Below are positions 21,354 to 58,980 of a stretch of 64,000 nt of DNA, in pieces. Position numbers and translations under genes: made by a program. Source of the stretch: Escherichia phage vB_EcoM_TH18. Under the pieces are notes generated by a model. The model was not told where the DNA came from, did no database searches, and saw only the letters and a list, made by a program, of their open reading frames with translations. Every line of letters begins with the position of its first letter. The first letter of the stretch is position 1. The stretch lies in sequence record ON075799; one strand, 5' to 3'.

Positions 21354-23390
21354 ATGAAAGGACTTTTTTTAGCCGATACAGAGGCTGATGGATTATTAGA
21401 AGAGGCAACTAAATATCACTGCACACTTTTTAAAGAATATGCTGTAAATAACTGGGTGTTGTTTCTCGATCCTGCTCACAAGGAATATCAGAGTGCAGTT
21501 AATTTTGCACGCAGCAAGGAAGGTGTTAATTTACGAATCCTTTCTTATGATGATTTTTACTCTTGGTTACAGACCGAACCAAGAGGGATAGCAATACATA
21601 ACCTGTTCGGCTATGACTTACGCCTGTGGAAAAAACTTTCTGGGATTGAATATGATATGTTCAAAGACCCAAAATGCATGGGGACGATAGGTAATAAACA
21701 GGTAAATCTTTACGACACTCTTTCAATGAGTCGTGTTCTTTACCCAGACCGCCCATTGCCTAATGGCTGCCCAGACTCTGTATTGAACCCTGTAACAGGA
21801 AAACGTGACAGGGTTGGGCCACACGGCTTATTGGCATGGGGTTATCGTGTAGCAAACAAGAAAGTGCAGATTGATGATTGGCGTAATCAGCCATTGTGGG
21901 AATATGTAAACCGTGTATGGGAAGACGTTATCATTAACGAACTTGTGTGGAAAGCTCTTATTGATGAGTCAAATGGTACGCGATGGCCTGATGACAAGCA
22001 GTTTATGTATACTGATAAACCTCACGGGATGCACCAGATTAATTGGAAAAATGCATTACGTAGGAGAATGCTCACAGACTATTTGATGATAGAGCAAGAA
22101 ATACAGGGTGTATACTTTAATCGGGAGGAGGCAGAAAAATTAAGAGATCGCATAGATAAGATGATGCGAGAAATTGAAGAAGAGGTAGAACCACTTCTTC
22201 CAAAAAAAGAGATGACGAAATCCCAACAACCAAAATTCCCAGCTAACCCTTTTGACACAGCGGGCAATATATCTCATCATGGGTGGAATTGGTTGGAATA
22301 TAAACTTGGCTATCCTGTTAACAGAGAAGCTCTGGAGTTCAAGGCTCCACCAAAAACAGCCTTTAAGAGTAACGGGGATGTAAGTGCAGCAGGGGAGAGA
22401 TATTGCATCCAGAATGGCATTGAAGATCCGGCTTTATACGGTGATTTCATTCGTTCCCAGCGAACCAAAGAGAACACACTCGAACCTTTACCGCCAGATC
22501 TTCTAGAGAAGGCTAAAGAAGACCTTCGAAATAGAAAAATGCCAGATTTAATGGTTCCAATGAAAATCTCTAATCAAGATGATATTAAAAAATATTTGAT
22601 CAAAGATGCTGGTTGGAAACCTACACTGTGGCGTGTAAAAGATGTTACTAAGGATCAATTTAAAAAGGCCCGTGAAGATTCTGAAATCGATGTACTAGTT
22701 AAGAAGTACATAGAAGAGTTGGCAGAATCTGAATATAAATCTCTTATTCTTGAATACCTTAATGATTCAGATGAGAAATTCAACATTTCAGAACGTAAGT
22801 TTGACCATCGCCATGCATCTGAAAGGGGTTATTCAGAGATATTTAAGAAATTTCGGCGCAAGGCACGCCAGTTACCGACATCTCCTCAACTAAAAGATAA
22901 TTTTGGGCATCTGTGCCCAAATCTGGAGAAAATTGATGTGCATATGGCAAAACAGATTGTTAAGTGGCTATCACTTCGTAACAGGCGATCTGTTTTAGAC
23001 CCAATGGATGAGGATAAGACGGATACAGGGTTATTAAATCACCCTCGTTTAGACATTGACGGAAAACTCCCAGCACGTTTTTCTGGAATCACTAACACGG
23101 GCAGGTGCAAGCATACTGTTTGCGCAAACATGCCCAAGCCTGATCCGAAGGTCTTGTTGGGAAAAGAAATGCGGGGTCTTTGGACAGTCCCTGAAGGCTA
23201 CTACCTGATGGGTTGTGATGGATCTAACTTAGAAGGTATGATTGCCGCAGCAGGAGCTTTTGAGTTTGATGGCGGTGAATATTTACGTATCATGATGGAA
23301 GAGGATGCCCATGAACGAAATGCAAGAGCATACACAATAGCCGCAGGAAAGGAGGTAACACGCTCTGGAGGAAAGGGGATTACGTATGGT
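21354..23390 (+). CDS. DNA polymerase (family A, T7 gp5-like) exon 1: 3'-5' exonuclease + polymerase motifs A and first half of B
   Basis: N-term 'MKGLFLADTEADGLLEEATKYHC' like T7 gp5 'DIEANALLESVTKFHC'; motif A 'CDGSNLE'; ends '...RSGGKGITYG' then stops in all frames; ATG 21354 with AGGAGG (ORF-track start 21312 less likely). Confidence 0.7.
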
Positions 23391-24124
23391 TAATGATAGC
23401 CCCCTTACAAAGTAATTTGTAAGGCGCACCCATTGAATTGCTGGGAAGTCTGACCGAGTTATGTCGAAGATAATCAGCAGGTAAGCGAATGCTTCCCTCT
23501 TACAAAAGGAGGGAGAATATGAGTACATTTTGTTGTATAATCTGCGGTGAGCAATGTGTTAAAACTGGTAAAAATCAAAAAGTATGTCTCTCTGAAGGCT
23601 GTAAAAGAGAATATCCAAAGATAAAAACCAGAGAATATAGACGCAGAAAGGCCGAAAAAGAAAATAGGCTTGATAGAGTTGGCATAGGAAAAGGTGGTGG
23701 GCAACCTTGTGGAAAATTGTCCAAATTTTATAAAAATGGTATATCGATGTTTCGTAAGTTATCCCCTGTCATAAAGGAACAGAGAAGATACTGTAATAGA
23801 TGTAATAAAGATCTTCTTTATGCAGGTAAGGATGAATGGTGCGTTCATCATATTGACCATGACAGGACGAATAACGAAATAAGTAATTTTGAATTACTTT
23901 GTAAAAAATGCCATCAAATAGAACATAAATGTTGGGAAGCATTCGAAACTTCAACGACTAGCCGAAAGGCGTAGGGCCAAGCGGTGAGGGAAACCTCCAG
24001 TCTTTTAGACTGCCGAAGCGGTGGGCATCCTGAAAAGGATGAAGATATAGTCTGATCTGCATAGAAATATGTAGCAGTTCCTAAGAGGACGGGCATGGTG
24101 TAGCGAGCCATGTTGAACAATATG
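23391..24124 (+). mobile_element. group I intron 1 (with HNH ORF)
   Basis: splits motif B ('...ITYG | IMYGAQAPKIA'); upstream exon ends in T, insert ends in G; shares 'AATTGC-GGGAA' and 'GATATAGTCTGA' elements with intron 2. Confidence 0.55.
23519..23974 (+). CDS. HNH homing endonuclease (intron-encoded)
   Basis: 'CVHHIDHDRTNNEISNFELLCKKCHQIEH' HNH motif with zinc-binding Cys pairs; RBS AAGGAGGG. Confidence 0.65.
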   Translation: MSTFCCIICGEQCVKTGKNQKVCLSEGCKREYPKIKTREYRRRKAEKENRLDRVGIGKGGGQPCGKLSKFYKNGISMFRKLSPVIKEQRRYCNRCNKDLLYAGKDEWCVHHIDHDRTNNEISNFELLCKKCHQIEHKCWEAFETSTTSRKA

Positions 24125-24457
24125 ATCATGTATGGAGCACAGGCTCCTAAGATAGCCGCAATGCTGGGTATCCCCCTTAATAGAGCACAGGCTGTAATAG
24201 ATGCATTCTGGGATAGTAACTTCGGGTTGAAAATGCGTAGGGAGCGGTTGGAAAAATTCTGGGAGGCAAATGGGAGACGCTATATTCCAGGCATGGACGG
24301 GCGTAAAATTTGGACTCGTTCTAAACATTCTCTGCTGAATGCTTACCAACAAAACGGTGGCGCTTCATTGTTTGACCTCATGGGAGTCCTGTTCCATTGG
24401 GAATTGGTAAAACGGGGATGGTACGACCAAGGTGTCAGGAGGGTTATCTATTACCAT
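24125..24457 (+). CDS. DNA polymerase exon 2 (rest of motif B to start of motif C)
   Basis: 'IMYGAQAPKIAAMLGI...RVIYYH' ; ends exactly before 'DE' of motif C. Confidence 0.6.
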
Positions 24458-24774
24458 AAACAATATTGTGGCTTCATGCAGTAATGCATGTCGAAAACCT
24501 CTCTAATTGACGGGAAAGCTAAGTTGATTCTTATAATTTATTGTGTTATAAGGACAATATGCCAATCCGCAGCGAAGCATCCCTACGGGATGAACGTTCA
24601 ACGACTATCGAAAGCACACTAGTAATGTGTAAGTGAGTAGAGTAGGCCAGCAAGTGCGGTCCAAACGGGAGGAACCCTTGAAAAAGGGTTATGATATAGT
24701 CTGACCCACAGGAGAAATCTTGTGGCTATGCACGTAACGGTGCGGGGGAGAGTAGCGAACTCCTTGAACTGGTG
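24458..24774 (+). mobile_element. group I intron 2 (ORF-less)
   Basis: splits motif C 'YYH | DEIQV'; ends in G; conserved elements shared with intron 1. Confidence 0.5.
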
Positions 24775-25074
24775 GATGAGATACAAGTACAAGTACCGGA
24801 AAGATTTAAATCAATAACGGAGTATTCCAGTTTAGATGCTGCACAAAGCTATGTAGATATGATGCTTGAAAAAGGTCATCGTTTCGACGGACATTATGTG
24901 AAAGCAGGTAAAGTTATTGTTGAACCTGATGTGTACGGGAAATACAGGATACTGCATTGCCCAGTAGGAGAGCTTGCAACAAAATGTGTAGAAAAAGCAT
25001 CTAAGATAATGGGGCTTCCCGTTTTAATTACAGGAGAATATCTTTGTGGTTATACTTGGGCAGATTCCCACTAA
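24775..25074 (+). CDS. DNA polymerase exon 3 (motif C to C-terminus)
   Basis: 'DEIQVQV...' completes HDE; C-terminus '...GYTWADSH' like Pol I-family terminal His. Confidence 0.6.
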   Translation, partial: DEIQVQVPERFKSITEYSSLDAAQSYVDMMLEKGHRFDGHYVKAGKVIVEPDVYGKYRILHCPVGELATKCVEKASKIMGLPVLITGEYLCGYTWADSH

Positions 25075-26728: not shown

Positions 26729-27034
26729 ATGAAAAAATTTACAAAAGAGCAGCTACTTAAGCATGTTCGCTCTAATGTTGACCATCTGGAAGACCTCCAA
26801 CAGCGTGTTGGTGAGGCTGGAGATGAGTATAAGAAGATTTTTGATATGGTATCTCTTGATTTGGAGATTGCTAAGATCGCATTAAATGCATTAGAAGCAA
26901 AACCGATTGGTGCTTTCCATATCACAAAGCAGCAAGTCGATGGTACAAGCGACTATATCAAAGATGGAGAATGGCCCATTGATAACGGAACAATTGAAGT
27001 ATACACTTCACCACTTGCTTTTACAGCGTGTTAA
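26729..27034 (+). CDS. hypothetical protein (paralog family 'IAL.ALEAKP')
   Basis: shares 'LEIAKIALNALEAKPIG' motif with 27405..27938. Confidence 0.5.
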   Translation: MKKFTKEQLLKHVRSNVDHLEDLQQRVGEAGDEYKKIFDMVSLDLEIAKIALNALEAKPIGAFHITKQQVDGTSDYIKDGEWPIDNGTIEVYTSPLAFTAC

Positions 27035-27052
27035 TAACAAAAGGGAGCGAGG

Positions 27053-27178
27053 ATGTTCAATAATTTGCCCAGTACTGGTTTTTTCTTGTTTCTTGGGGTT
27101 GTTTGTGCAGTTATTGGTTGGGCAGCTATTGAGTCAATTCTTTGGCTGCTTTCTTTCATACACATAACTATTTATTAA
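27053..27178 (+). CDS. small hydrophobic ORF (41 aa), not in ORF track
   Basis: strong RBS GGGAGCGAGG before ATG 27053; predicted membrane peptide 'MFNNLPSTGFFLFLGVVCAVIGWAAIESILWLLSF...'. Confidence 0.35.
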   Translation: MFNNLPSTGFFLFLGVVCAVIGWAAIESILWLLSFIHITIY

Positions 27179-27186
27179 GGATTGGT

Positions 27187-27402
27187 ATGTTAATAACAAA
27201 GGATAAATACATGAACGGACAAATCTCAATTACTCGACCTAACACAGGTGATGATGACAAGATAAGAATGGCTATTCGTCTGGAGAGAGGAAAAACAATA
27301 ACTGCTCTTGTTACCCCAGAAAATCTTGCATTGGCACTGACCGGAAAGTCAGAACTCCCCGTAGAGCTAGATGTGAGAAATGTTGAGATTAAGGTGAAAT
27401 AG
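27187..27402 (+). CDS. hypothetical protein
   Basis: ATG 27187 after AAGGA; ORF-track TTG start at 27142 less likely. Confidence 0.45.
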   Translation: MLITKDKYMNGQISITRPNTGDDDKIRMAIRLERGKTITALVTPENLALALTGKSELPVELDVRNVEIKVK

Positions 27403-27404
27403 GT

Positions 27405-27938
27405 ATGAGCATTCTTACTAAAGAGAGATTGTTGACAATCAAGCAGTGGCGCGAAACATACGGACTTGGTAGTAACGTTGTACTGCCAGCAGAAGAGGCG
27501 CAAGAACTGGCACGAATTGCTCTGGCATCGCTGGAAGCGAAACCTGTTGCATGGACTGATGAGGAACTGCGTGATGTTAAGCAGTATGGTTTCGGTGAGA
27601 TATTTCAGTGTCCGCCAGATAAATATGCGGACCCGCGTCGTGTAATCTCGCTGTATCGCGAGCCGCCAACACTTACAGTGCCGAAAGTGGAACCGATAGT
27701 AGTAAACGACGACATGGCATACGCATTCCATCATGCACTGTCAGATTCATCGCTAGGCGCTGATGAGGTAGAGGAAATTAAAACTGGGTTGCGTGCAGCC
27801 TTTGCCAACGTCACCACCCAGCCACCATTGATAGTGCCTGATGAAATCGAGCCAGACGATAGCAATACGTTTGATTATGTTGATGGCTGGAACGCCTGTC
27901 GCGCTGCCATGCTCAAAAAGAAGGGGATGAATCAATGA
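27405..27938 (+). CDS. hypothetical protein, GC-richer host-like codon usage (paralog family 'IAL.ALEAKP')
   Basis: 'ARIALASLEAKPVAW' motif; frequent CTG/GCG/CGC codons unlike flanking genes. Confidence 0.5.
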   Translation: MSILTKERLLTIKQWRETYGLGSNVVLPAEEAQELARIALASLEAKPVAWTDEELRDVKQYGFGEIFQCPPDKYADPRRVISLYREPPTLTVPKVEPIVVNDDMAYAFHHALSDSSLGADEVEEIKTGLRAAFANVTTQPPLIVPDEIEPDDSNTFDYVDGWNACRAAMLKKKGMNQ

Positions 27939-28018
27939 CCTGGCCTGAAGCATTCACAACGGTAGGGGTTGTAATGGCTGTAGCATTCGCAGTGTACTCA
28001 GTTTGCCGATGGGGGTGA
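27935..28018 (+). CDS. tiny hydrophobic ORF (27 aa), not in ORF track
   Basis: ATGA overlap with upstream stop; 'MTWPEAFTTVGVVMAVAFAVYSVCRWG'; stop 2 nt before next ATG. Confidence 0.3.
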   Translation: MTWPEAFTTVGVVMAVAFAVYSVCRWG

Positions 28019-28020
28019 TA

Positions 28021-28218
28021 ATGATAAAAGAACAGCCAGAAAATGATACTCAAAAATCACGTTTTCAGCAGTGGTTGGAACAACAACATGATCAGATTGA
28101 TGTGGATTGTGGTTGTGTTTCTATTGAAACATTCATGTATTGGTTACAAGTGGCGTATGAGGCAGGAGGAGATTTAAATGAACAATGGTTATCAACCTGT
28201 CATCTCGGAAATGGCTAA
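28021..28218 (+). CDS. hypothetical protein
   Basis: ATG 28021 with RBS GGGGGTGA. Confidence 0.45.
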   Translation: MIKEQPENDTQKSRFQQWLEQQHDQIDVDCGCVSIETFMYWLQVAYEAGGDLNEQWLSTCHLGNG

Positions 28219-28584
28219 TGTTTCTCTTCCACCTTCGTCACCAAGCCTTAAAGCAGCAACCCAACAACCAGTTGCTTGGCGGTATCGCTACGTGAAAAAA
28301 AAAGCGTTACGGACTCTCAGGGGGAGCCGTGGGTTGGTGACTGGAAATATGTACCGACAAAAGAAGATTGTAACGACAGACCAAACTACGAAATTCAGGC
28401 GTTATACACCACACCTGTAACCTTAGAAGGACTGGTTAAAGCAGTGCGCTTTTATGAACAGGTAAAGCGCGAGAATCCACCAGTCGAAACAGGAGCATGG
28501 AAAGACGCTGTTGACTGGGTGCTCAAAGAGGCATATAATGCAGTCAATAAAACAACACAGGACTTATCAAATTATGAAAATTGA
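28178..28584 (+). CDS. hypothetical protein requiring a -1 frameshift or slippage at an A9 tract (28295-28303), or frameshifted pseudogene
   Basis: Upstream frame 'MNNGYQ...PVAWRYRYVKKK' (RBS GGAGGA) continues sensibly only in the -1 frame 'SVTDSQGEPWVGDWKY...'; downstream ORF's own start is TTG without RBS. Confidence 0.45.
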
Positions 28585-32131: not shown

Positions 32132-32156
32132 AAGTAACATTTGTTAATATAAAAAA

Positions 32157-32182
32157 GGGAGCTTTTAGCTCCCTTTTCTTTT
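32157..32182. terminator. bidirectional intrinsic terminator at convergence of early and late blocks
   Basis: GGGAGCT-TTT-AGCTCCC flanked by A6 and TTTTCTTTT. Confidence 0.6.
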
Positions 32183-58389: not shown

Positions 58390-58899
58390 TTATGATGCTT
58401 CTAATTCAGATTTAAGATCAGCAATCATCTTTTCAAAGGATTTGTTTTTAGTTAGTGTAACACCTTTAGAAAGTGCAAACTCAACTAATCTATCTTTACT
58501 ACCTTTTTTATCAGCTTCATCATTCAGAGACATTGCTTCCTCTAAAATCAGATCAATAGATAGATTTTCTTTATCAGCCTTTTTATCTTGCACTTCTACA
58601 ATCTTGGCATCAACTACCTTACCCAAGTTTTTCGGACTAGGGATATCTTTGTTGAAGAACACGATATAAGATCCCATACGAATAGTAGAGTGCTGTGCAT
58701 CAACATCTAAACCAGACAGCTCTGCAAGAGCAGTGAAAAACTCAACAGTGTTTCTGAATGCTTTGTGTTGTGTTCCCACACATAAACCGTTCAAAGGTAG
58801 TCTTGCTGAGACCGCTGCATTTAATTGCGGGGCGTATGCACCAAAAAACTTAAATAATTCCACCTTATTAGGGAAAATACGATAATTTTGATTCGCCAT
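58390..58899 (-). CDS. hypothetical protein
   Basis: 169-aa ORF downstream of capsid gene. Confidence 0.45.
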   Translation of the reverse strand: MANQNYRIFPNKVELFKFFGAYAPQLNAAVSARLPLNGLCVGTQHKAFRNTVEFFTALAELSGLDVDAQHSTIRMGSYIVFFNKDIPSPKNLGKVVDAKIVEVQDKKADKENLSIDLILEEAMSLNDEADKKGSKDRLVEFALSKGVTLTKNKSFEKMIADLKSELEAS

Positions 58900-58980
58900 A
58901 AAATCTCCTTTTATTCCTTAGTAAAAACCACTTCACACCACAGGATAAGCGGCTATTATTAAGGCCGGAATGTGAAAAAA

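Follow-up and report, generated by a model that had tools for sequence, protein, structure and literature searches.

Two small membrane-like proteins encoded in the Ea22/EaA/DUF551-type gene array of an Avunavirus and their relatives in other phages

The small inner-membrane regulators of the AcrZ–AcrB, MgtS–MgtA, KdpF, CydX and sarcolipin/phospholamban type are proteins of 27–49 residues that consist of one transmembrane helix rich in small residues and polar ends that are short; an enzymatic domain is absent, and annotation has often missed them. Type I toxins (Hok/Gef, DinQ, ShoB, Ibs, and TisB) are small hydrophobic membrane peptides as well, DinQ being 27 residues long. Two open reading frames (ORFs), referred to here as ORF1 (41 codons) and ORF2 (27 codons, exactly the length of DinQ), resemble both groups and are located in a 64,000-nucleotide (nt) stretch of Escherichia phage vB_EcoM_TH18 (sequence record ON075799), the whole of which is called the window below. 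They differ from the AcrZ-type regulators in having no sequence similarity to them, in being phage-borne and highly mobile instead of chromosomal, and in a conservation that is not one-faced. From the type I toxins, to which they again show no sequence similarity, they differ in a predicted translation from within operons, with ORF2 in a coupled arrangement. A third described system for comparison is the lambdoid phages' exo-xis region, which is transcribed from pL according to PMC4195576 and comprises, in lambda and Stx phages, the genes orf60a, orf63, orf61, orf73, ea22, ea8.5, and orf55. Relatives of ORF2 in lambdoid phages share this region, being placed 3′ of ea22/DUF551-type genes and next to xis-int, and, judged from this gene order, the lambdoid ORF2 belongs to it, the region being defined by a place between the recombination genes and xis-int on the strand transcribed from pL; the assignment is inapplicable to the Avunavirus window, which is without int and xis. 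There is no sequence relationship between ORF2 and the exo-xis products, those described so far being soluble, whereas ORF2 is membrane-like; a text search of the exo-xis modelling paper PMC8614690 gave no mention of an exo-xis transmembrane protein, and none turned up in PMC4195576.

Neither peptide is a new kind of system, both being phage-encoded small membrane proteins. ORF1 and ORF2 are real genes under purifying selection, mobile and hydrophobic, and we consider it likely that they represent two unrelated, genuine accessory ('moron-like') genes for single-pass inner-membrane micro-proteins, carried in Ea22/EaA/DUF551 arrays and acting by the mechanism proposed below.

Evidence for a coding gene at ORF2

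The window is base-for-base identical, at the same coordinates, to OK136180.1 (Escherichia phage 18-1-2; Vequintavirinae, Avunavirus). Two sister isolates are identical to 18-1-2 across the window stretch, and phage Av-05, with 92% identity, is its only divergent full-length relative. A preliminary description of this DNA had presented both ORFs as unannotated genes for single-helix membrane-like peptides, translationally coupled to their neighbors. Their coordinates and junctions were confirmed on reading the sequence, including the Shine–Dalgarno (SD) sequence GGGAG of ORF1, and conservation and hydropathy (with structure prediction for ORF1) bear out that both are small genes for such peptides; an absence of conservation, which had been named together with a lack of ribosome occupancy as what would speak against them, was not found, as both are conserved. 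The other two attributes apply to ORF2 only. ORF2 lies within an unannotated 82-nt gap in the records of both 18-1-2 and Av-05 and is likewise unannotated in six further phage records and three RefSeq E. coli loci processed by the Prokaryotic Genome Annotation Pipeline (PGAP). As read from the sequence, it is arranged as a coupled gene on both sides, its ATG overlapping the TGA of the upstream gene (27936–27938) as ATGA and its stop being followed by the next ATG after a 2-nt gap. It is well established that ATGA overlaps give termination–reinitiation coupling. The initiation module lies within the final codons of the EaA-like gene that precedes ORF2, and the last codons and stop of ORF2 themselves form a G-rich SD sequence, GGGGGTGA, for the downstream gene (28021..28218). 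By contrast, ORF1 is annotated as hypothetical both in this phage (peg.42, UDW09785.1) and in Av-05 (Av05_00125), and it overlaps neither neighbor, being separated by 18 nt from the upstream stop and by 8 nt from the annotated next start (32 nt from the likelier start at 27211), so that the overlapping or near-abutting stop and start of coupled pairs are lacking. The possibility that ORF2, which is in the −1 frame, is joined to the upstream gene by a programmed frameshift was rejected because GAATCAATGA contains no X-XXY-YYZ slippery heptamer and reinitiation at ATGA is simpler.

Since comparable small hydrophobic ORFs are common by chance, with 321 ATG-initiated ORFs of 20–45 residues in the six frames of the window, of which 15 have a grand average of hydropathy (GRAVY) above 1.3, the evaluation rested on conservation and not on appearance. 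The ORF2 peptide of Av-05 is identical to that of the window, all three nucleotide differences being synonymous. At the DNA level, ORF2 matches 87 phage records with 75–82% identity, including 933W, VT2-Sakai, many Shiga toxin (Stx) phages, and a P1-like phage; in the six phage records inspected, the match starts at the stop codon of differing upstream genes, and all of seven divergent annotated loci keep an open frame of exactly 27 codons that encodes a conserved peptide. Two seeds were used to probe these boundaries independently, an N-terminal seed comprising the first seven codons and a C-terminal seed comprising codons 15–26, the latter leaving the N-terminus free. With one genome per species, the N-terminal seed gave 36 matches, about 70 being expected by chance from our own arithmetic; every match in Escherichia/Shigella is a 27-residue peptide ending in CRW[GRW], as are those on two tiny contigs labelled Xanthomonas and Acinetobacter, and the matches in unrelated phyla have arbitrary lengths. 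In IMG/VR, 111 of its 120 matches are exactly 27 residues long. Among the 126 matches of the C-terminal seed, the codon exactly 14 codons upstream is ATG in 120 and GTG in 2, the N-terminus reads MxWPEA[FL], and all but one (125/126) end at codon 27.

The pattern of variation is that of a protein-coding sequence. Over the non-seed codons, the entropy at the three codon positions is 0.42, 0.28, and 0.78, respectively, and each of the 53 unique sequences has stops in both of the remaining forward frames. The ratio of nonsynonymous to synonymous polymorphism (pN/pS) over all pairs is 0.38, the shifted frames giving 0.85 and 1.96, and the corresponding ratio of substitution rates (dN/dS) between the window and the other lineages (six main lineages) is 0.07–0.20 where dS is estimable, with dS exceeding 1. 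The conserved block is an island of about 100 nt, composed of ORF2 and the 16-nt SD region, with 73–80% nucleotide identity between lineages and flanks of 19–35%, the random level; the 16 nt preceding the ATG are 56–75% identical across lineages, sequence farther upstream falls to the random level, and on the 3′ side homology goes no farther than the stop codon in more than ten contexts that differ from one another. Membership in the family was defined by a length of 27 codons, the pattern M-x-W-P-[ED]-A...G11...A15...[YF]-S-x-[CF]-R-W-x, and an ATG overlapping or abutting the upstream stop, all of which are present in the window ORF2; its peptide is 63–81% identical to 11 other family variants and has every invariant column. 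The fuller family pattern is M-[TSN]-W-P-[ED]-A-[FIL]-...-G11-...-A15-x-A17-...-[YF]-S-[IVL]-[CF]-R-W-[GWR]. The peptide is made up of a stretch of 18–19 residues rich in small side chains (F7–C24) between an acidic N-terminal W-P-E and a basic C-terminal R-W-G. The best 19-residue Kyte–Doolittle window scores 2.03–2.11 (2.03 at residues 6–24 of the window peptide), a hydropathy consistent with a bilayer-spanning, single-pass segment. An antisense gene at the same place was considered and rejected, as its start and stop vary, its length ranges from 0 to 127 residues depending on the context, and the replacements are more radical (Grantham distance of 77, as against 58 in the sense frame).

ORF2 is found in diverse gene contexts. 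Upstream, a single mosaic EaA/Ea22/DUF551 cluster accounts for 105 of 117 genes. At the native junction, ORF2 follows the C-terminus of a DUF551 protein, ...HWMPLPEPP-QEVNQ with its stop codon; most relatives have AGGAGGTGAATCAATGA here, a sequence that encodes this QEVNQ tail with its stop and at the same time constitutes the SD sequence and the ATGA overlap of ORF2. Grafting has placed the tail on a 16-residue remnant of DUF551 and on an unrelated 933W-type gene as well. The EaA-like gene of the window, whose N-terminus resembles the mosaic genes preceding ORF2 elsewhere but in which no DUF551 match was found, retains only GAATCAATGA of the native junction. ORF2 hence occurs after full-length DUF551, after the 16-residue remnant, after an EaA-like gene without DUF551, and after the unrelated 933W-type gene. 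An identity of this 933W gene with the phi24B gene for 'Gp05' (winged helix-turn-helix, PVQ repeat, and coiled coil) was not matchable from the published text, and no claim to it is made. Downstream (n = 130), ORF2 is followed by a DUF4222 gene next to xis-int in 48 copies, by a P1-like gene in 11, by the Ea22-like 65-residue gene of the window in 3, and by other ORFs of unknown standing in 6; in the remaining 62, no ORF of at least 40 residues starts within 80 nt, and hairpin/terminator-like sequences or hok/sok then follow in some. In PhiR5_1 and JLK-2012, the homologues lie one or two genes before xis-int and after Ea22/DUF551, and in 933W after ead/Ea22-like and DksA-like genes (NC_000924.1, complementary strand at about 58829–58912, with equivalent sites in Sp5/Sp15); in 933W and Actinobacillus phage vB_Apl-pPE4, ORF2 is the last ORF before a hokW/sokW (or hok-family) locus, which begins about 150–240 nt downstream.

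Conservation and predicted structure of ORF1

ORF1 has no DNA-level matches beyond the Avunavirus group, and its family emerges at the protein level, with matches in 46 phage records found by tblastn. In eight divergent phages of different genera and sizes, the start of ORF1 is shared, the length is 41–49 residues, and the motif G..C...GW..IE...W[LI].SF.HI[TS] is retained. A profile search yielded 146 family clusters at 90% identity, and an exhaustive hidden Markov model (HMM) search yielded 176 clusters at 50% identity, nearly all of them standalone proteins of 32–60 residues, spread over temperate, T1-like, rV5-like, and jumbo phages; profile matches reach down to E = 1e-18. Taking as members standalone ORFs of about 37–55 residues with the motif C..xGWxxIExxxW[LI]xSFxHI[ST], to which the window ORF1 conforms, the C-terminal half is almost fully conserved: I26 and W31 are without exception among 120 sequences, W23 and S34 each occur in 119, G22 and F35 each in 117, and E27 in 115. 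The family motif can be written C18..xG22W23xxI26E27xxxW31L32xS34F35xH37, and all the named residues are present in the window sequence. Vibrio phage NVP1256O_08, gp237 of Edwardsiella phage pEt-SU, and Av05_00125 are true homologues of the same length, motif, and standalone architecture. Judged by these matches, ORF1 is a member of an existing, unnamed family of proteins filed as 'hypothetical' or 'TMhelix'.

The ORF1 peptide contains no basic residue, and its best 19-residue Kyte–Doolittle window scores 2.25. AlphaFold2 (AF2) run with the family alignment predicted one continuous helix of residues 6–40 with a mean predicted local distance difference test (pLDDT) score of 87.5, so that by hydropathy and model alike the peptide has a hydrophobic helix able to span the bilayer in a single pass.

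The settings of the ORF1 family vary. In phages of Cronobacter, Klebsiella, and Enterobacter, its members come after genes of the Ea22/EaA/DUF551 type and often overlap the gene before them, by 1 nt in prophages of Klebsiella and Enterobacter, and at several places in Klebsiella a DUF551 gene lies directly 3′ of the relative. Others are found in nin regions or near integrases, and in Yersinia prophages they stand directly 3′ of a holin–endolysin–spanin cassette. Three jumbo phages (Edwardsiella pEt-SU, Klebsiella N1M2, and Serratia Sureiya) carry the homologue within a transfer RNA (tRNA) cluster; 8–10 nt separate the jumbo-phage homologues from a thioredoxin or glutaredoxin gene downstream, and Cys18 of ORF1 is near-invariant, a functional link being possible.

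Proposed mode of action and alternative explanations

We infer translation, membrane insertion, and topology. In the mechanism proposed here, ORF2 would be translated by termination–reinitiation: ribosomes would complete the EaA/DUF551-type gene on reaching the TGA within ATGA and begin again at the ATG that overlaps it, aided by the SD sequence within the last codons of the upstream gene; in the window, the last codons and stop of ORF2 would in turn supply the SD sequence for the next gene. The ORF2 peptide would then insert in the inner membrane as a single helix (F7–C24), its N-terminus outside and its C-terminus inside, an orientation suggested by Glu5 and Arg25 under the positive-inside rule. 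Each peptide would act alone on a conserved host inner-membrane component, like AcrZ, MgtS, and KdpF; that they act independently is suggested by the retention of ORF2 with varied upstream genes and with or without a downstream gene, together with the varied settings of ORF1. On the strength of this analogy, we propose only tentatively that ORF2 is a modulator of a host membrane protein, and it is possible, though on the unlikely side, that it does something other than any role named in this section. For ORF1, the buried, near-invariant Glu27 one turn before Trp31 and the constrained C-terminal half suggest, as a lead only, a specific oligomer or a channel-like assembly.

Several observations weigh against this interpretation. 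As regards coding, pN/pS alone cannot separate the sense frame of ORF2 (0.38) from one antisense register (0.33), in which a low value is expected because the wobble positions coincide; the tie is decided by the conservation of the boundaries and by the chemistry of the replacements. A few copies of ORF2 carry W3R, P4S, a stop, or a frameshift, which implies that it is dispensable in some prophages. No peptide strings were found in the supplements of a ribosome-profiling study of strain Sakai (Hücker 2017), which considered only ORFs of at least 30 residues, a cut-off below which ORF2 falls, or in those of a survey of small ORFs in Enterobacteriaceae. As regards function, the clustering of 105 of 117 upstream genes leaves room for a functional link of ORF2 to the upstream protein. 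Conservation is not placed on one helical face, so that the idea of a helix-packing interface is left without positive support; a one-sided interface with a GxxxA face was dropped, as the helical moment of variability was no better than in shuffled sequences (p = 0.87 for ORF2 and 0.23 for ORF1). Finally, function rests on analogy, for want of homology to characterized proteins. Searches of both peptides against Pfam-A, PHROGs v4, NCBIfam, and PADLOC gave no significant match (best, phrog_29901 at E = 0.09 and phrog_22915 at E = 0.1), 72 members of the ORF1 family (against Pfam and PHROG) and 12 of the ORF2 family scanned singly gave none, and the ORF1 profile found none in PDB; relatives among defense systems and solved structures were rejected for either peptide.

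A membrane-damaging action, by which the peptides would depolarize or permeabilize the membrane of the host to bring about host shut-off, lysis timing, or abortive infection in the manner of type I toxins, holins/antiholins, or viroporins, seems to us rather unlikely, both for the pair and for ORF2 taken by itself as a toxin-like peptide. It would fit the size and hydrophobicity, which match those of the DinQ, ShoB, and Ibs-type toxins, the position of ORF2 about 150–240 nt upstream of hok/sok in 933W and pPE4, and the Yersinia relatives of ORF1 found directly after the lysis cassette. The Glu27–Trp31 pair of ORF1 also resembles the HxxxW gate of influenza A M2, in placing a titratable residue one turn before an invariant Trp; ORF1 has Glu in place of His and is not homologous to M2, the likeness being a lead only. 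However, the antisense small RNA and the independent messenger RNA with a structured leader that mark type I toxin–antitoxin loci are not seen here: Rfam gave nothing on both strands, the antisense strand has no conserved feature, there is no independent promoter of the type I kind, and ORF2 has a coupled arrangement inside an operon. Neither ORF belongs to a lysis cassette with an endolysin in the window, where both lie among ea-type genes, or in most other contexts, which for ORF2 are ea22/DUF551, xis-int, and hok (only the Yersinia relatives of ORF1 follow such a cassette), neither has the charged C-terminal tail typical of holins, and no toxin or holin was matched in PADLOC or Pfam. Up to six copies of ORF2 are tolerated in one genome, which argues in the same direction, though repression of pL could explain it.

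We regard it as doubtful that each peptide instead serves the Ea22/EaA/DUF551-type protein encoded upstream as its dedicated partner, for example as a membrane anchor, kept at a fixed ratio by coupling; the same grade applies to ORF2 alone as the partner or anchor of the EaA/DUF551 protein. The upstream cluster and the native junction at the DUF551 C-terminus would agree with such a role, as would ORF1 following Ea22/EaA/DUF551-type genes in the window and in the phages of Cronobacter, Klebsiella, and Enterobacter, often with a 1-nt overlap. Adjacency to these genes is to be expected anyway, because the arrays are largely made of them. ORF2 is nevertheless retained after the 16-residue DUF551, after the EaA-like gene of the window without DUF551, and after the unrelated 933W-type gene, and ORF1 has no such neighbor in the jumbo phages, where it follows tRNAs, or in Yersinia, where it follows spanins.

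The preliminary description had further pointed out that small membrane peptides of early phage operons often act in host takeover or as division inhibitors; that the two peptides are early takeover factors or inhibit cell division in the manner of Kil and DicB now appears improbable. The small phage proteins encoded in regions such as exo-xis include Kil and DicB. To our knowledge, these two are not tiny single-pass membrane peptides, which counts against the comparison, and no sequence or family similarity of either peptide to Kil, KilR, DicB, or other known inhibitors was found in Pfam, PHROG, or NCBIfam; with PADLOC and PDB included, there was no likeness to an inhibitor of this type, a toxin, a holin, or a defense protein, leaving the suggested role without support. 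In its favor, the lambdoid ORF2 lies in the pL-transcribed exo-xis region, the genes of which, according to PMC4195576 and PMC8614690, influence the lysis–lysogeny decision and host survival. Nor was the view of the Avunavirus array as an early operon borne out: in a promoter and terminator scan of 23–33 kb, consensus matches stayed at the level of shuffled sequence with the sole exception of the terminator at 32153–32177, and the scan is uninformative on operon timing.

It is very improbable that ORF2 is a mere translational relay from the upstream to the downstream gene with a functionless peptide. Such a relay would account for the ATGA overlap on the 5′ side, for the gap of 2–5 nt between the stop and the following start in the contexts of the window, DUF4222, and P1-like genes, and for last codons (CGN-TGG-GGN) that make a G-rich SD sequence for the next gene. 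It needs no fixed hydrophobic sequence of 27 codons, whereas the amino acid sequence of ORF2 is under strong purifying selection; an ORF of at least 40 residues starts within 80 nt downstream in only 68 of the 130 copies, and the peptide is equally conserved where hairpin/terminator-like sequences or hok/sok follow.

That ORF2 is no gene at all but a conserved noncoding boundary, 'linker', or RNA element at a lambdoid module junction with an incidental frame, as might be thought from the shortness of the block (about 100 nt), its position exactly at the junctions of unrelated modules, the junction conservation discussed for lambdoid mosaicism, and the equally low pN/pS of one antisense register, is hardly tenable in view of the dominance of third-position variation, the dN/dS of 0.07–0.20 at saturated dS, the ATG, 27 codons, and stop kept under two independent seeds, the conservative sense replacements (mean Grantham distance of 58, as against 77 for an antisense strand with no conserved start, stop, or length), the canonical SD sequence at optimal spacing within the block, and the result with Rfam, in which a search at E up to 1 on both strands gave only a chance microRNA match outside the ORFs, so that a known RNA element was rejected.

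Distribution, annotation, and neighboring genes

As a mobile membrane micro-protein gene, ORF2 is among the more widespread unrecognized genes of E. coli, occurring in Stx phages as well as in the P1-like phage-plasmids that Escherichia and Salmonella carry. Of 5,426 complete E. coli genomes, 1,651 (~30%) contain it, at 2,731 places, 162 of them on plasmids, and one genome may hold as many as six copies; tblastn finds it in 90 phage records. Of 180 plasmids with ORF2 in PLSDB, 154 are from Escherichia, 25 from Salmonella, and 1 from Klebsiella; 174 are non-mobilizable, and among those listed as examples most are of 90–110 kb, the size of P1-like phage-plasmids. No copy was found in the Rac prophage of K-12, the only K-12 prophage looked at. 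Gene callers of the Prodigal type have a 90-nt minimum, and ORF2, at 84 nt including the stop, is believed to have been missed because it falls under it. The peptide has been called sporadically in GenBank, as 'bacteriophage protein' (EIL24003.1) or 'hypothetical protein' (AOM45384.1, ASL59396.1, and ETI78407.1); these entries are identical to common prophage variants and stand isolated, with no family or function attached. The variant of the window itself is absent from a collection of 15 billion proteins, and the peptide string MTWPEAF has no occurrence in literature text.

Missed small ORFs are already a known phenomenon; it is the prevalence of ORF2, the strength of selection on it, and its exo-xis location that make it worthwhile. 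Deletions and multicopy clones of the exo-xis region are reported to alter how lambda and Stx phages lysogenize and how their prophages are induced, and constructs spanning the part of the Stx exo-xis region that holds ORF2 would include or remove it unnoticed. It is a quite speculative thought that ORF2 is a hidden exo-xis effector of 933W, VT2-Sakai, and other Stx prophages, which would bind a host inner-membrane protein and shape phenotypes of lysogenization, induction, or host survival that have been credited to the annotated exo-xis genes. ORF1 is a second strongly conserved membrane peptide, common to diverse phages and without a family model. Both peptides are small enough for synthesis and thus cheap targets for work on phage micro-proteins.

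Some occurrences of ORF2 call for caution. Peptides on tiny contigs assigned to Xanthomonas pisi (431 bp) and Acinetobacter idrijaensis (369 bp) are identical to 933W-type and P1-like E. coli variants, and these contigs probably represent enterobacterial or phage DNA that contaminated the assemblies. Phage vB_Apl-pPE4 (PP818812.1), whose recorded host is Actinobacillus pleuropneumoniae, encodes the commonest E. coli prophage variant of the peptide, with 82.5% nucleotide identity to the window ORF2, and also has a hok-family locus and ea-type genes; its host assignment or origin looks worth checking. In a 90%-identity clustering of a large protein collection, the 27- and 41-residue peptides were filed under their upstream neighbors (a 121-residue DUF551 protein and a 101-residue protein, respectively), apparently a short-sequence artefact that makes such cluster sizes untrustworthy. 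Outside Enterobacteria, two differing peptides of 25 residues each, MNWPEAIVSIAYFAVIGVIFWLALR of Bilophila wadsworthia ATCC 49260 and MNWPDAIVTVAFFALMGFIFWIKLR of an uncultured Bilophila, overlap the end of a helix-turn-helix-type gene, as ORF2 does in phage JLK-2012, and are possible distant relatives; four further peptides of 26–30 residues composed of MxWP[ED]A and a helix occur in viral contigs. As a further speculation, ORF2 may be the enterobacterial branch of a much wider, annotation-invisible class of this MxWP[ED]A-plus-helix type, which would extend to unrelated bacteria, the 25-residue Bilophila copies being an example.

Both ORFs lie inside a plus-strand array of small genes (Table 1) that extends over about 25.0–32.1 kb after the DNA polymerase region and is closed by the strong terminator at 32153–32177. 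The array holds several lambdoid accessory gene types (EaA, Ea22-like, and phrog_660/60), and peg.41, upstream of ORF1, matches the same PHROGs as the EaA gene upstream of ORF2. The annotated start of peg.43 is probably wrong, the true start being ATG 27211, because the phrog_1222 match starts at residue 9 and AAGGA precedes ATG 27211 at good spacing.

Table 1 Features of the ORF1–ORF2 region, in window coordinates
Feature	Position	Strand	Description
Gene 5′ of ORF1	26729..27034	+	peg.41, 101 residues, EaA/Ea22 N-terminal-module type; phrog_660, phrog_5117, phrog_60, phrog_3323
ORF1 SD region	27043..27052	+	GGGAG 27043–27047, 5 nt before ATG; then GAGG 27049–27052
ORF1	27053..27178	+	Predicted single-helix membrane micro-protein of 41 residues, MFNNLPSTGFFLFLGVVCAVIGWAAIESILWLLSFIHITIY; ATG 27053, stop TAA 27176–27178
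Gene 3′ of ORF1	27187..27402	+	peg.43; phrog_1222, unknown function
EaA-like gene	27405..27938	+	177 residues, annotated 'EaA protein'; phrog_60, phrog_660, phrog_12449; TGA overlaps the ORF2 start codon
ORF2 initiation module	27921..27938	+	SD AAGGGGA 27921–27927, spacer TGAATCA, ATGA start/stop overlap 27935–27938
ORF2	27935..28018	+	Unannotated, predicted membrane micro-protein of 27 residues, MTWPEAFTTVGVVMAVAFAVYSVCRWG; stop TGA 28016–28018; next ATG 28021
Gene 3′ of ORF2	28021..28218	+	65 residues, annotated 'Ea22 protein', phrog_924; ATG 2 nt past the ORF2 stop

The virulent Avunavirus appears to have acquired its Ea22/EaA/DUF551-type array from lambdoid prophages. Two segments of the window, 27405–27550 and 28262–28532, have 85–90% nucleotide identity to genes of lambdoid or P1-like prophages in about 2,000 E. 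coli genomes, an identity that points to fairly recent gene flow from temperate to virulent phages. Farther downstream, a homologue of Av05_00121, an intact 128-residue protein, is broken at 28178–28584 into two overlapping frames (28178–28420 and 28276–28584), the split lying at or near an A9 run (28295–28303) within a short inserted stretch; GenBank annotates only the second part, with a TTG start. Possible explanations of the split are an error in sequencing the homopolymer, a genuine pseudogene, and a site of slippage. Upstream of the array, DNA polymerase is annotated in pieces within 21354–25074 (21354–23393 and 24113–24484) with other ORFs between, and the equivalent region of Av-05 carries two HNH homing-endonuclease genes, which suggests that the polymerase gene has been fragmented by mobile elements.

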